Below are positions 1,485 through 61,804 of a stretch of 64,000 nt of DNA, one piece after another. The DNA is from Mugil cephalus (Eukaryota), in assembly GCF_022458985.1 (NCBI RefSeq), contig NC_061781.1:26385222-26449221 (forward strand), read 5' to 3'. The notes beneath the pieces were generated by a model. That model was not told the origin of the DNA. It saw nothing but the letters and a program-made list of their open reading frames with translations, and searched no databases. Position 1 is the stretch's first letter. Every line of letters starts with the position of its first letter. Both the position numbers and the translations under genes were made by a program.

Positions 1485-2840
1485 GTGATTATGGAGATCC
1501 TGCATGAAGCTGAACTCTGCTTTCCACTCCTCCTCAACACCTCCTGCAGGAAGACGCTGAGGCACCAGACACAAATCATCCTTTACATCCTGCTGTCCTG
1601 CATCTCTCTGCTCACTGTGTTCCTCAACCTGCTGGTCATCATCTCCATCTCACACTTTAGGTATAAAATACAAACTCACCATAACCTACAACTATTTTTC
1701 TTTCTCCTTCTTCACAGAGCTTTAATGAATGGGCTCGGGGACAATAGAGATGTGGTGCAATATTAAAATTGATTTACAGTTGTTCTTTAACAGAATACAA
1801 CTCCTGACATCTTCTACATGTTCCTGTTGTAACTTGGATATATTTTATATATTTGACTGTTCATTATGTTGCATGTGGTACTTTCATGATTTTAACAATT
1901 GATGCATGTGATGTATGAATATAATATATCTTATGATATTTCTTTCTTTCTTTCTTTCTTTCTTTCTTTCTTTCTTTCTTTCTTTCTTTCTTTCTTTCTT
2001 TCTTTCTTTCTTTCTTCCAGGCAGCTCCACACCCCCACCAACCTCTTCCTCCTCTCTCTGGCTGTCTCAGACTTCCTCGTTGGTCTCCTCCTGATGCCGA
2101 TTCAAATCCTCCTTTTAGAGGGCTGCTGGGTTTTGGGAACTTTCTTATGTGGACTGTCTTACTACACCTCTTTTATCCTTACATCCGCCTCCGTAGGAAA
2201 CATGGTGCTGGTATCAGTTGACCGATATGTAGCTATCTGTGACCCATTGTGTTACCCCACCAAAGTCACTCAAAGCAGAGTTCAGATCTGTGTTTGTCTG
2301 TGTTGGATCTGCTCTGTGTTCTACAACAGTGTGATACTGAAAGACTTTCTGAAAGATCCAGACAGATATGCTTCATGTTATGGAGAGTGTGTAATTGTAA
2401 TTGACTTCATAACAGGAGCTTTTGATATTGTATTGACCTTTGTTTGCCCTATAGCTGTCATCATAGTTCTGTATCTGAGAGTGTTTGTGGTGGCTGTGTC
2501 TCAGGCTCGAGCCATGAGGTCTCATATTGCAGCTGTCACTCTACAGGGTTCAGGTCATGTAACTGCAAAGAAGTCTGAGAGAAAAGCAGCTACAGCTATT
2601 GGTGTTGTAGTGGTTGTCTTTCTGGTCTGTTTCTGTCCTTATTTTTCTCCTTCTCTCGCAGGACAAAACATTTCAACCAGCGTGGAGTTTTCTGTCTTTG
2701 GGTTGTGGTTACTTTATTGTAACTCTTGTCTTAATCCACTGATCTATGCTTTTTTCTACCCCTGGTTTCGGAGATCTGTTAAGCTCATTATTACACTTCA
2801 GATACTACAGCCTTACTCCTGTGATGCCAACATACTCTAG
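1485..2840 (+). CDS. Trace amine-associated receptor (TAAR, olfactory class-A GPCR), subfamily A. Two exons join(1485..1660,2021..2840), about 331 aa
   Basis: Exon 1 encodes MIMEILHEAELCFPLLLNTSCRK...NLLVIISISHF (N-terminal NxS/T-Cys plus TM1) and ends AG|GTATAA. The acceptor is ttcttccag|GCAGCTCC, and phase 2 rebuilds Arg before QLHTPTNLFLLSLAVSD (TM2). It has DRY (SVDRYVAICDPL), the ICL3 motif SQARAMRS, and the TAAR TM7 fingerprint NSCLNPLIYAFFYPWFRRS. Position 3.32 is Ser and 5.42 is Asp. The intron contains a (TTTC)n microsatellite. Confidence 0.85.
1938..2016. repeat. (TTTC)n microsatellite inside the TAAR-A intron
   Basis: About 19 perfect TTTC units, read directly. They are translated in the ORF track as FFLSFFLS. 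Confidence 0.95.
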
Positions 2841-5800
2841 AGATGTCTGAGGAGAGACTGGAGGGACAGAAGTAGTTGCTGTTACTGCTATTTCTTCATT
2901 ACTCTACGAAATACTGTGATAACTGAAGCCATGCATATTTTAATCCCAGTTGAGACAAGAAGTCATATTAATATTATATTATCAGTTGCGCAAACTTGAA
3001 TAAATAAGTTGATTCTACATTAACAAAATGTCTTTTTTGCTTAATCATTTTTCTGTTTTAGATAAAACTGCAATATATGAAAGTTTCTCTGACAAAAATG
3101 TGTCTGAAAGAGTGGATCATTGAAGTCTGTCTAAGTCTTAGTCTCATTTAATCAGACATGTCCAAGACATCAATCAGCATTTACTCTCTTTATAACACTA
3201 TGACTGAGAAAGGATGTACCCGAGATGACAAATTTAGAGGGGAAGTGATGCACATGATAACGTAGCACTGTAAAACAAAAGTTCACCTGCTGACCTAAAA
3301 ATGTGAGTGAGCTTAACCAGAAGAAAATCTCTGTATCACTTCAAAAAGCTAAATTATAACTAATGACCATGTGCTCGTTTCAGCTTGATATTATGAGTTA
3401 ATACAACTTATTGGTTTCATTATCCACTAATTTTACCTTGTCAAATGAACTTACAAAATCCCTCAGTATTTCTACTCAAGATCACTTTAACTAAATTCAC
3501 ATAAAATTTCTCATCTTGATGTAACCGGTGGTAAATAAACCCAGATGTTATTCTACACTGCAATGTAAGATCATAATGTGTTCTTATCTTATTTTCTTAT
3601 TTTTCTCTTTTTCTATGTAACGCTTGTAATCTTACCATCCAGAAATGTGCACAGTAACTTTTTGGTCATAGGGTGGCAGCACTGAGCCCAGTTAGGTTTT
3701 ATTGCGAAGTGCATTTTGGGTTATTGTTGTTTTTCCTTCTGCTAGATGTGGGCCTGAGAGTTGCAAAGTGTGTAACGGACACTCTGTTGCTTAAATCAAA
3801 AGGTAGAAAATGCACACACAAACATGTTGGAAAATATTGTTCACTGGGACTTACTTGCTTGCGAAGCGTCAACCACGGTTAGCAGCTAATTTCGGTACTA
3901 GGTGAGGAAAACTCAAATACTTGGGACGACAGTTGGTGTAAGTGTCTGCTTTGGTATACTGTACATTTCAAATTGTGTTTGTTGTTCTGTGTGATTAGTT
4001 CCTTGTATTTTGGGACATTTTGTGTTTATTTTTTTTTATTTCTTTTCAAATATCAAAACTGAGAACAGTGCTCACATTGTTGGGTTGCTCCACCCTGGCC
4101 GTCCTATCGCAGGGCTAACACAGAGACAAACAACCATTCAAACTCACACCTATCAATCTAGAGTCACCAATCAGCCTAACGAGCATGTCTTTGGAGGTGG
4201 GAGGAAACTGGAGTACCTGCAGAAAACCAACGTGGACACAGGGAGAACCCGGAACTTCTCGCTGGGAGGCATCAGCACTGACCACCAAGTTCATTGTATA
4301 TATCTATTATTATTTTTATTATTATTGTTTTATTCTGAAAGTCTAATGTATGTTGTACATTTTTTTCAAATTTTTCCCGCTTTTATTGTTATGCTTATGT
4401 CAAATTTAACATTTCTTTTATTTAGACAGTTTATAGAAGGTTATGGTTTGATTAACCAAAGACATCCACTTTGAGATTCTTTCATGGCAGAAAAATGGCT
4501 TCAAAGAGTGCACCTTATCTGCCTGTGTATCTTGTGTTTTTTAAGTGTCCTTGTCCTTGTTCTGTGTTTTTATTTTTGCTCTTATTTTTCTACCTCAGTA
4601 TTTTATTCTATTGTATTTAAATACCGGACTGCTACGACGACTTAATTTCCCTTCGGGGATGAATAAAATAATCTACCTACCCACCTACCTACCGATCGAC
4701 ACTTTCCACTGAAAAGAGCCAGGTCGTATTAGTTAATAAAACACAGGTCTACTGAAGGGGAGGCCTTTGAACTCCACATCCTTGGGCCTCTCCAGTGGAA
4801 CCAGCTCTAAGTTTTGATAAAGCTTCCAGTAAGATCTGGTTCAGAAAACCCAGAGCCTTCCCTTTGTGATGCTGCTGCTGGGAGAGTTCCCATGATGCAC
4901 TGAGCTCCTCTCCTCTCCCCTCTCTCACTCCACATGTTGCCTCTTTCTCCACCTCCATCTTCTGCCCTTCACCTTTCTCAGAGACTCCGGCCACTAGAGC
5001 CCCCCCCAAAAGGAACTAACAAAGAATGTTAATTCATTTCATTTGTTTATTTATTCTTCTGTATGATCACATATTGTTGTACAAAACACAATTTTATGTC
5101 AACATAGTGCTGTTGCTGATGAAAGCCTAACCATTATGTCAAAGCTCCGCTGCACCAGTAATGTTGTGGCTGCGCATCCAAAGCGCAGTTAGTTGAAGGC
5201 AAAACAATTTTACAAAGAAGGACATGTCCTTCAGGGCATAGGTAATAAAGAGGAAGAGGAGAAAAGGCCAAGATAAAGGTTTGTTTGCATATCTTGGTGA
5301 TGGAATGTTTATCAAAGAGATTTGTGTAGCTGTTGATAGGAAATTAGTTAGTTGGTTAAAAACTAGAGAAATATATCTTTTACCTGACGGGTTAAACGTT
5401 TGTATTTGTGTGATACTGAGATTTAACTGTGGTTGAGTTGATTGTCGGGGTTGGCCCTATGCATTTACGCTTTTTTGTCTTTAAAACACAGTTTTTGCTG
5501 ATGTTTGACTGTGAACATTAGTAGTTTGAGATGTTGTTTGCTGCTGGTAATTTATGTAAGTAAAGTAAACATATACTTTTTACATCAACTCATAAGTTAT
5601 GTGAAACTTGCCCAGGAGCACTGTTAAAGTACCTCGGAGGCAGAGACTCAGCCCAGTACCAGTCCATCCTCAGGCTCAACTGTGGGTATCAGGGAAAGAC
5701 TGTCACCACATTCATTACACATTTAATTTCTACATATAAGAAGAATTACACCCAAACAGTAATTGATTTAGTCAATTACCTCTTTAATGTGTGTGTATGT

Positions 5801-60658: not shown

Positions 60659-61804
60659 TTACAGGACGTTGGCATTACAGGAGCCAGGAGTCAGTATTTG
60701 AAGTGTCACAATAACTTTCATAGATTTTCTAAACCAGGGATAGAAAAAGGCGTAGATGATTGGGTTTAGACAGGAGTTAAAATAGAACAGACAAAATACA
60801 AGGACTAAGGATGAAGGATTGTACAAATTCTCCTGGTCTGTGAGTGAAACACAGAAATATGGACAGAAACATGTTAGAAACACTAGTACAACAACCCCAA
60901 GAGTCCTGGCTGCTTTCAGTTCAGACTTCTTAGCTGTTACTTTCCCTGAACGCTGCAGAGTAAGAGCTGTAATATTAGAGCGCATGGCACGAGCCTGAGA
61001 CACAGCCACCACAAATATTCTCAGATACAGAACTATGATGACACTTATGGGCAGAAACAAAGTCAAAATGAGATCTACAAAACGTTTGGTAAAGTCAATG
61101 TCAATCACACACTCTCCAATGCAGGAATTAAATCTGCCTGGTTGTTTCAGACTCTCCTTAATCAACACAAATACATAGAAGAGAGAACAGATCCAACACA
61201 GAGAGACACAGATCTGAACTCTCCTCTGAGTGACTTTGGTGGGATAATGTAAAGGATAACAAATGGCAGCATAGCGGTCAACAGATATGAGCACCATGGT
61301 CCCTACTGAGGAAGACGTAATGACTGTGTCTAAAACTAAATAAAAGATGCACACCAGCTCATCAAAATACCAGCATCCATCTATGAGCGTGATCTGAAAG
61401 ATCATGAGGAGGCCCACGAAGAAATCTGAGACAGCTAGAGAGAGGAGGAGGAGGTTGGTGGGAGTGTGGAGCTGCCTGGAGAAGGAAGAAAGAAACACAC
61501 TTCTTATTATTGCTGGTAGTGATTATTATCTAAACAGATAACCCACATCAGATCATTGGATAAGCATTCAAGAACATTTCTATTGAAGCTACTTCCACAG
61601 TCATATCTGTCCAGTTTGATAAAGAGATGAAATATGTGTCTACTTGAAGTGGGAGATGGAGATGATGACGAACAGGTTGAGAGCTGCAGTCAGTAGAGAG
61701 ATGGAGGACAGGATAATGTGAATACACACAGTATCAAAGTGAGAACGCTTTAGCTTCCTGCAGGAGGTGTTGAGCTGTGGAAAACAGAGTTCATCTCCCT
61801 CCAT
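60659..61804 (-). CDS. TAAR, subfamily D, copy D6. complement(join(60659..61475,61644..61804))
   Basis: The exon 1 sequence and splice signals are the same as the other D copies. Exon 2 reads ...CWYFDELVCIFYLVLDTVITSSSVGTM...NSCLNPIIYAFFYPWFRKS. Both 3.32 and 5.42 are Asp. There is a 12 bp deletion in the 5' leader relative to D1-D5 (ccattgtcagagagag-ctgctgagc). Confidence 0.85.

Follow-up and report, generated by a model that had tools for sequence, protein, structure and literature searches.

Nine two-exon receptor genes

We analysed a 64,000-nucleotide stretch of the Mugil cephalus genome (contig NC_061781.1; in the following the window), which harbors nine trace amine-associated receptor (TAAR) genes, termed g1 to g9, with g1 on the forward strand and g2-g9 on the reverse strand. 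A six-frame motif scan of the whole window revealed nine SISHF and nine QLHTPTN motifs arranged in same-strand pairs, to which nine exon-2-sized open reading frames (ORFs) of 279-313 codons correspond. This is in agreement with the original prediction, made from the letters of the window, of nine genes with a first exon ending in SISHF and a second exon opening with (R/K)QLHTPTN. When the SISHF frame was run upstream to the first in-frame ATG and then joined to the QLH frame, all nine gene models yielded an intact spliced coding sequence of 325-330 codons. Searching with the nine proteins (tblastn, E ≤ 1e-3) gave no further TAAR fragments or pseudogenes in the window, including its large gaps.

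All exon 1 lengths measured from the first in-frame ATG are of the form 3n+2 and the intron is therefore in phase 2. Both this phase and the predicted intron size of 137-360 nt were recovered in all nine models. The predicted exon 1 length of 161-176 nt stands as 161-170 nt, the value of 176 nt stemming from g1 when begun at a GTG (position 1485), with its ATG located at 1491. Exon 2 comprises 817-823 nt, and its first base, a G, completes an AGG (Arg, g1-g3) or AAG (Lys, g4-g9) codon, which is followed by CAG CTN CAC (QLH). The intron thus splits the Arg/Lys codon after its second base, directly behind Phe1.60, which marks the border between the first transmembrane helix (TM1) and intracellular loop 1. 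The junction Phe is codon 53 in g4-g9, 54 in g3 and 56 in g1 and g2, giving the dipeptide F-R in g1-g3 and F-K in g4-g9; the glycosylated N-terminus and TM1 are encoded by exon 1, and TM2-TM7 by exon 2. The acceptor is AG in all nine genes; the donor is GT in g1 and g4-g9 and GC in g2 and g3 (Table 1). The g1 intron contains a perfect (TTTC)19.5 microsatellite at 1939-2016, which forms its polypyrimidine tract and much of its extra length (360 vs 137-168 nt).

Table 1 Coordinates of the nine TAAR genes in the window and of the stretches compared among g4-like genes. A slash marks an exon-intron border, here and in the text; residues are given for the encoded receptor.
Feature	Position	Strand	Remarks
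g1 exon 1	1491..1660	+	170 nt; N-terminus and TM1, ends SISHF + AG; protein identical to XP_047457666.1
g1 intron	1661..2020	+	360 nt, phase 2, GT-AG
g1 exon 2	2021..2840	+	TM2-TM7 and stop; Ser3.32, Asp5.42, Trp7.40
g2 exon 1	8427..8596	-	170 nt; protein 100% identical to P0001, Mugil cephalus TAAR13c-like
g2 intron	8290..8426	-	137 nt, phase 2, GC-AG, cag/GCACTG ... tgcag/G
g2 exon 2	7467..8289	-	Asp3.32, Asp5.42, Trp7.40
g3 exon 1	11243..11406	-	164 nt; protein identical to XP_047457670.1 'TAAR 4-like'
g3 intron	11094..11242	-	149 nt, phase 2, GC-AG, cag/GCACAA
g3 exon 2	10277..11093	-	Pro3.32, Asp5.42, Phe7.40
g4 exon 1	19879..20039	-	161 nt; protein identical to P0121
g4 intron	19715..19878	-	164 nt, phase 2, caa/GTAGAC ... 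ccag/G; junction codon AAG = Lys
g4 exon 2	18898..19714	-	Asp3.32, Asp5.42
g5 exon 1	28628..28788	-	161 nt; protein identical to XP_047457675.1
g5 intron	28464..28627	-	164 nt, phase 2, GT-AG
g5 exon 2	27647..28463	-	Asp3.32, Asp5.42
g6 exon 1	36472..36632	-	161 nt; protein identical to P0125
g6 intron	36304..36471	-	168 nt, phase 2, GT-AG
g6 exon 2	35487..36303	-	Asp3.32, Asp5.42
g7 exon 1	42311..42471	-	161 nt; protein identical to P0123
g7 intron	42143..42310	-	168 nt, phase 2, GT-AG
g7 exon 2	41326..42142	-	Ala3.32, Asp5.42
g8 exon 1	48170..48330	-	161 nt; protein identical to XP_047457681.1
g8 intron	48006..48169	-	164 nt, phase 2, GT-AG
g8 exon 2	47189..48005	-	Ala3.32, Asp5.42
g9 exon 1	61644..61804	-	161 nt; protein identical to P0126
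g9 intron	61476..61643	-	168 nt, phase 2, GT-AG
g9 exon 2	60659..61475	-	Asp3.32, Asp5.42
g4-like stretch	18650-20190		compared for divergence
g4-like stretch	27400-28940		compared for divergence
g4-like stretch	35380-36890		compared for divergence
g4-like stretch	41220-42600		compared for divergence
g4-like stretch	47190-48810		compared for divergence
g4-like stretch	60460-62270		compared for divergence

The TAAR identity that had been proposed could be confirmed by protein searches. Four representatives (g1-g4) matched Pfam 7tm_1 over profile positions 2-260 of 260 (E 1e-45 to 1e-49). Among all PDB sequences, the top matches were zebrafish TAAR13c, 13d, 13a and 13e (PDB 9m2s, 9m0x, 9m3s, 9m40; cadaverine, putrescine and diamine receptors) with E 1e-67 to 1e-74, followed by TAAR1, TAAR7f and TAAR9 (E 1e-53 to 1e-65). 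Classical aminergic receptors (adrenergic, histamine, serotonin) reached 2e-36 at best, about 30 orders weaker than TAAR13a-e, and all of the closest proteins in the databases bear the name TAAR. Identity to zebrafish TAAR13c is very roughly 45%, as estimated by eye from the alignment. All nine receptors carry the TAAR-defining TM7 fingerprint NSxxNPxx[YH]xxx[YF]xWF (definition quoted in PMC4786312), here as NSCLNP[ILV]IYAFFYPWF, as well as DRY, N1.50, D2.50, NPxxY and an N-terminal N-glycosylation sequon. By exact matching, the nine spliced models are identical to RefSeq Mugil cephalus proteins named 'trace amine-associated receptor 13c-like' or '4-like', all located on one 27.78 Mb contig; g2 and g4 show 100% full-length identity to NCBI entries called 'trace amine-associated receptor 13c-like'. 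All nine two-exon structures, including those of the GC-donor genes, are thus already correctly annotated in RefSeq.

Some surveys regard TAARs as intronless save TAAR2 (PMC4786312, PMC4065256), and the exon-2 ORFs by themselves reach 279-313 codons, as would be expected if the genes were single-exon TAARs that had suffered frameshifts or become pseudogenes, or if they were functional with one exon and started at an internal Met, with no intron being spliced. However, the ORF starts without an ATG in g4-g9, and the first Met of exon 2 lies in TM2, so that TM1 would be lost. The internal Met that had been assumed within MFLSSFSRQLH turned out to be a GTG inside the polypyrimidine tract in g4-g9 and a TTG in g1 and g3, and a true ATG in g2 only; in eight of the nine exon-2 ORFs the 'Met' is owing to bacterial start-codon rules in the ORF track. 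Moreover, exon 1 retains an open frame, the glycosylation sequon and the N1.50 motif in all nine genes and in seven other species, every junction combines an AG acceptor preceded by a polypyrimidine tract with a GT or GC donor in one phase, and the spliced models equal the annotated proteins exactly in eight species including the mullet. A single-exon origin of the nine reading frames can thus practically be set aside. Chance and sequencing error are ruled out as sources of the split, because the same junction is found in the nine genes and in seven other species.

The neoteleost class III intron

An intron at the border of TM1 and intracellular loop 1 has already been published, and the observation as such is not new. 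Azzouzi et al. 2015 (PMC4415300), who cite Hashiguchi & Nishida 2007 and Hussain et al. 2009, reported two coding exons in about 80% of cichlid TAARs and in 86%, 74% and 61% of those of stickleback, medaka and fugu, respectively. Their intron lies in the sequence coding for intracellular loop 1 (codons 53-59, near codon 55) between Phe/Tyr and Arg/Lys, is restricted to family A (class III) and was attributed to one gain. TAARs of zebrafish, salmon and mammals consist of one exon, save TAAR2 (PMC4415300, PMC4065256, PMC4786312); for example, the zebrafish TAAR13c protein runs uninterrupted through ..SIAHFKQLQTPTN.., where the mullet genes are split. The Korsching laboratory likewise treats TAAR intron gains as established. 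The mullet genes share with family A genes of cichlids, stickleback, medaka and fugu the intron site, the Phe-Arg/Phe-Lys junction, the protein size, the TAAR motifs and the arrangement in tandem clusters; what sets the mullet (Mugiliformes) apart is a lineage expansion of its own, consisting of g4-g9 and further paralogs. The original prediction had correctly pointed to a single intron reported for neoteleost class III TAARs; the mullet intron agrees with the published description in position, dipeptide, class restriction and explanation by one gain. The sequence comparisons show that the mullet intron is this very intron, inherited by the four lineages g1, g2, g3 and g4-g9.

For comparison, every two-exon TAAR junction was modelled at eight loci of seven other species, which together with the mullet resulted in a set of 25 genes from eight species. 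One Cottoperca gobio copy with a broken exon 1 (L001 6481-7481, annotated with 334 aa and adjoining the g2 ortholog) was left out. Its exon-1-like and exon-2-like parts are only about 40 nt apart, interrupted by in-frame stops and without a SISHF end; the copy is likely to be either a pseudogene or an erroneous annotation, the end of TM1 and the intron having been deleted. Intron position and phase were identical in 25 of the 25 genes, and the annotated protein was reproduced exactly by the splice model in all eight genes looked up, five of which required a GC donor.

As had been predicted, the nine genes fall into four divergent subfamilies (g1, g2, g3 and g4-g9), which are mutually 55-67% identical and three of which have cross-species clades with bootstrap values of 78-93. 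One might suppose that each subfamily gained its intron independently, by parallel insertion at a hotspot, since the intron interiors are unalignable between subfamilies or even orthologs and the insertion site resembles a proto-splice site (CAG/G). Position and phase are, however, the same throughout the 25 genes, distant clades have the motifs GCAGAGATAA (5') and ..TGATGATATTCTCCCTCTCCAG (3') in common, and the two-exon genes all belong to one family in the published tree (PMC4415300), which makes parallel gains very improbable. The claim of one ancestral gain is consequently well founded, as position and phase are identical across lineages and PMC4415300 explains the intron likewise. Another known TAAR intron has a different placement. 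In mammalian TAAR2, the intron lies near the extreme N-terminus, away from the border between TM1 and intracellular loop 1. TAAR2 is the other TAAR with two coding exons and one coding-region intron (PMC4065256, PMC4786312). It belongs to another TAAR class than the mullet genes, and its intron goes back to an event of its own.

In one respect our data contradict the published description. In Additional file 4 of the cichlid paper (PMC4415300), every TAAR intron is entered as phase 0 after the Phe codon. In the mullet, this placement would result in introns bounded by AG..CC or AA..CC, and g4-g9 would read Arg where RefSeq has Lys; the GT/GC-AG dinucleotides fit phase 2 only. The mismatch is explained by the AG..AG or AGGCAG repeat at the intron ends, which lets the alignment junction slide: in the cichlid alignments, the spliced sequence runs through ..CACTTCAGGCAG on the donor side, and the same bases recur at the acceptor.

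TAAR mining pipelines now include an exon-aware step for such introns (PMC10869828), and the single-exon threshold in that large recent survey was 850 bp. The stop-to-stop ORFs covering exon 2 and part of the intron measure 939-942 nt in g1 and g2 (1899-2840 and 7467-8405), which exceeds this threshold, so that ORF-first mining could accept N-terminally wrong models of some two-exon TAARs.

Mullet expansion and predicted ligand pockets

The genes g4-g9 are a tandem expansion of the mullet lineage, with a backbone that is almost the same in all six, intron included. At least 15 g4-like paralogs with about 86-96% identity exist in the mullet, and those of other species show 72% or less, from which we conclude that the window is part of a larger lineage-specific expansion. 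The unit shared by g4-g9 is only about 1.45 kb long, extending from about 150 bp upstream of the ATG through the stop codon; the one common to g4 and g5 is larger and more recent. One retrotransposon fragment is contained in this g4/g5 duplicated block (21074-22795 vs 29896-31610, 98.8% identical).

Diversity among g4-g9 is unevenly distributed. It amounts to 0.014-0.026 in the proximal promoter, 0.035 in exon 1, 0.0175 in the intron and 0.091 at third codon positions of exon 2, and it reaches 0.10-0.24 in three coding patches (aa 75-107, 150-194 and 255-284). These correspond to TM2-ECL1-TM3 (including 3.32), TM4-ECL2-TM5 and TM6-ECL3-TM7 (including 7.40), where ECL denotes an extracellular loop. 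The intron is several-fold less diverged than synonymous sites. This pattern points to a mosaic, in which a backbone may be homogenised by gene conversion and pocket segments diversified, or in which the intron may be under constraint.

With residue numbering checked against the TAAR13c alignment, Asp5.42 is present in all nine receptors, where it aligns with Asp5.42 of TAAR13c. Asp3.32 is kept in five (g2, g4, g5, g6 and g9) and replaced in g1, g3, g7 and g8, and Trp7.40 is retained in g1 and g2 only. The mullet g2 thus shares Asp3.32, Asp5.42 and Trp7.40 with zebrafish TAAR13c at aligned positions. Class III had originally been introduced as the family without the classical amine motif, which fits the mullet genes poorly, since five of them keep Asp3.32, g2 keeps Trp7.40 in addition, and the non-classical Asp5.42 occurs in all nine; loss of Asp3.32 and Trp7.40 is typical of most class III members and not strictly defining, as TAAR13 and TAAR14 keep Asp3.32. 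The observed combination of residues resembles the TAAR13/14-like basal part of class III, and the placement in class III is suggested by best matches, with TAAR13c/d as the only outgroup of our tree (see below).

Asp5.42, the non-classical amine contact, occurs in nearly all class III members (Li et al. 2015, PMC4695389). According to the published scheme, Asp3.32 alone indicates recognition of classical monoamines, Asp5.42 alone that of non-classical monoamines, and both together that of diamines or dications (PMC4695389; PMC12560584, a 2025 mandarin-fish study). By this scheme, g2, g4, g5, g6 and g9 are predicted diamine/dication sensors, e.g. for cadaverine or putrescine, and g1, g3, g7 and g8 predicted non-classical monoamine sensors. 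Judging from family knowledge, amines would be bound via a salt bridge to Asp5.42 in all nine receptors, and each olfactory sensory neuron would express one receptor that signals through Golf and cAMP. Having orthologs across acanthomorph fishes (about 66-82% identity) and the full residue set of TAAR13c, g2 is the most promising candidate for a diamine sensor that has been conserved. A simple regex scan of the 400 bp upstream of each ATG revealed no O/E (EBF) sites; it returned one homeodomain-like match (g2) and two distant TATAAA.

From these results, we interpret the window as one portion of a more extensive tandem array on one Mugil cephalus chromosome, made up of class III (TAAR13c-like) TAAR genes, which are two-exon genes with the inherited neoteleost intron and include the mullet expansion g4-g9; we assign this interpretation a probability of roughly 0.93. 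Some points weigh against it. All donors are weak, matching five of the nine positions of CAG/GTAAGT by our own count, and two of them are GC; the proposed splicing of the nine genes is deduced from splice signals, from Gnomon/RefSeq models and from the conservation of the reading frames; the predicted ligands, like the olfactory expression, are carried over from homologs; and whole-gene positive selection among g4-g9 was not demonstrated, pairwise ratios of nonsynonymous to synonymous divergence (dN/dS) being 0.38-0.86.

Several features were observed between the genes. Between g8 and g9, which are 12 kb apart, lies a near-perfect inverted repeat (53098-53883 and 54597-55320) with arms of about 700-790 nt, 98-100% complementary, and an inner spacer of about 710 nt. 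This repeat may represent a foldback element or an inverted duplication of recent date, or may have been produced by the assembly. Decayed fragments of non-LTR (lacking long terminal repeats) retrotransposons are located at 13577-14793, 22785-24759 and 50945-51475; among them are a piece of an Exo_endo_phos endonuclease, pieces of RVT_1 reverse transcriptase and an ORF with weak resemblance to GDSL esterases. Microsatellites also occur in the intergenic DNA, and scans of the window for Rfam families and tRNAs gave none.

GC-AG donors and the origin of the intron

In g2, the SISHF codons are followed by AG/GCACTGATC, where the frame runs into a TGA two codons past the junction, and in g3 by AG/GCACAAAC, where it does so nine codons past the junction. 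Since neither gene contains a GT between the SISHF codons and this early stop, their frame is restored by a GC-AG intron only. GC donors are also found in 11 further TAAR genes, with AG/GCAG present in six of the seven other species. Among g2 orthologs, the donors are AG/GCAGATATAATA in Cottoperca, AG/GCAGATATAATC in Sparus, AG/GCAGAGATAAGC in Genypterus and AG/GCAGAAAAAACC in Myripristis. Two more Myripristis genes (GCAGAGAAAACC and GCAGACTAATAT; three of three in this species), two of the five Centroberyx genes (both GCAGAGATATAC), a second Sparus gene (GCAGAGATAAAC) and the grouper g3 ortholog (GCACATAACCCT, i.e. AG/GCACAT) belong to the same type. GT donors occur in three Centroberyx genes that arose by recent duplication, in the g4-like group (mullet g4-g9 and grouper, AA/GTAGCC), in mullet g1 and in the two stickleback genes sampled, stickleback having GT donors only. 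As in the mullet, the supplementary cichlid alignments (PMC4415300) contain both GC-type (..CACTTCAGGCAGAGATTAAC..) and GT-type donors, and they also hold ..CACTACAGGCAGAG.. and ..TACTTCAGGCACATATAATG... GT-AG or non-canonical sites are not mentioned in PMC4415300, and we found no comment on GC donors in the TAAR papers searched, including a full-text search for TAAR and 'GC-AG', with Hussain et al. 2009 outside the search.

GC donors make up roughly 1% of vertebrate introns, and GC-AG introns of the U2 type compensate by a near-consensus at the remaining donor positions (AG/GCAAGT). The TAAR donors CAG/GCACTG, CAG/GCACAA and CAG/GCAGAG follow the consensus on the exon side, but do not match it at positions +4 to +6. 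They are further part of a direct repeat: the donor reads (C)AG/GCAG, and the acceptor together with exon 2 likewise reads (C)AG/GCAG, so that splicing of AG/GCAG...AG/GCAG drops one repeat copy and the insert, restoring ..TTC AGG CAG CTC...

This arrangement raises the possibility, which we put forward tentatively, that the intron was born as a GC-AG intron via insertion or duplication and that the GC donor is a surviving footprint of this event. The AGGCAG direct repeat would have been created when a short stretch was inserted or duplicated at ..TTC AGG^CAG CTC.., with the upstream copy of the repeat providing the donor AG/GCAG and the downstream copy the acceptor ..CAG/GCAG. The GC donor would then have persisted in many paralogs, such as g2 and g3, and the GT donors of g1 and g4-g9 would represent later C>T improvements. 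An ancestral GC state would be favoured because GCAGAGATAA is shared by distant clades, GTAGAC is one C>T away from GCAGAC and GC donors are rare in vertebrates; together, these observations are suggestive, not proof, of an ancestral GC donor and a birth footprint.

The distribution of donors was mapped onto a neighbour-joining tree built from exon-2 proteins, with zebrafish TAAR13c/d as outgroup. GT donors formed three groups, i.e. the g4-like clade (bootstrap 78), the Centroberyx triplet (100) and g1 alone, with GC donors everywhere else, among others in the g3 clade (93) and in the g2 orthogroup (91), the latter comprising five species from Holocentriformes to Percomorpha. The backbone had bootstrap values of 2-17% only, and the ancestral donor state is for this reason unproven. 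Conversely, GT could have been the original donor, with GC arising secondarily by T>C drift, once or repeatedly, in an intron whose shortness makes it tolerant, and the AGGCAG repeat being a coincidence or due to splicing constraint. This would be compatible with the deep nodes, which at 2-17% bootstrap would allow the GC lineages to form one clade, with the fact that CAG/G at both ends is expected from splice-site consensus alone, and with a donor sampling that reaches no lineage more basal than Beryciformes/Holocentriformes. On the other hand, GC is spread over the g2 orthogroup of five species, the g3 orthogroup, all three Myripristis genes, two of five Centroberyx genes, the second Sparus gene and cichlids, and GT is confined to the three discrete groups. 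The single C>T between GCAGAC and GTAGAC is a change expected to better U1 pairing, and repeated fixation of GT>GC seems unlikely given the general rarity of GC donors. We consider a GT origin possible, if on the whole doubtful.

Cases of intron birth in other genes provide a partial parallel to a GC-AG origin. Hellsten et al. are said to have described, in 2011, a segmental-duplication intron in teleost ATP2A1, and Li et al. reportedly found, in 2009, new introns of Daphnia flanked by direct repeats. These originated by short duplications or insertions at AGG(T) sites, and the TAAR intron is also flanked by a repeat, (C)AGGCAG; it differs in that the repeat carries GC instead of GT, and in that neither similarity between intron and exon 1 nor transposon features were detectable in the intron. 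A decayed tandem copy of exon 1 was rejected as the source of the intron (local alignment of every intron with the exon 1 of its gene, 300 dinucleotide shuffles per gene, 19 genes; z -1.0 to 1.6, p ≥ 0.086). Terminal inverted repeats at the intron ends were dismissed as well, as judged by eye only, since their pairing is inconsistent and explained by purine-rich vs pyrimidine-rich ends. The 3' end of the intron resembles ..GTCATCATCTCCATCTCCCACTTCAG, which we attribute to the composition of the pyrimidine tract. No conserved interior that could represent a regulatory element or transposon was found: in orthologs as in paralogs, alignable sequence is limited to the two ends of the intron, with about 10 nt on the 5' side and about 30 nt on the 3' side. 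The intron gain predates the split of Holocentriformes and Percomorpha, and most of its evidence has eroded.

As such, the two-exon structure is of limited importance, since the intron is textbook knowledge for neoteleost class III TAARs and the nine genes are already annotated; it is a reminder that ORF-based mining truncates two-exon TAARs. The GC-AG donor with its AGGCAG repeat, unreported in the TAAR papers searched, is a small addition to a known intron and corrects its published description as phase 0. If the GC donor is indeed ancestral, the intron would be a rare example among vertebrates of one whose sequence still reveals how it was gained. For the mullet itself, the pattern of Asp3.32 and Asp5.42 predicts possible diamine-sensing receptors, which may bear on feeding and avoidance in this aquaculture species.

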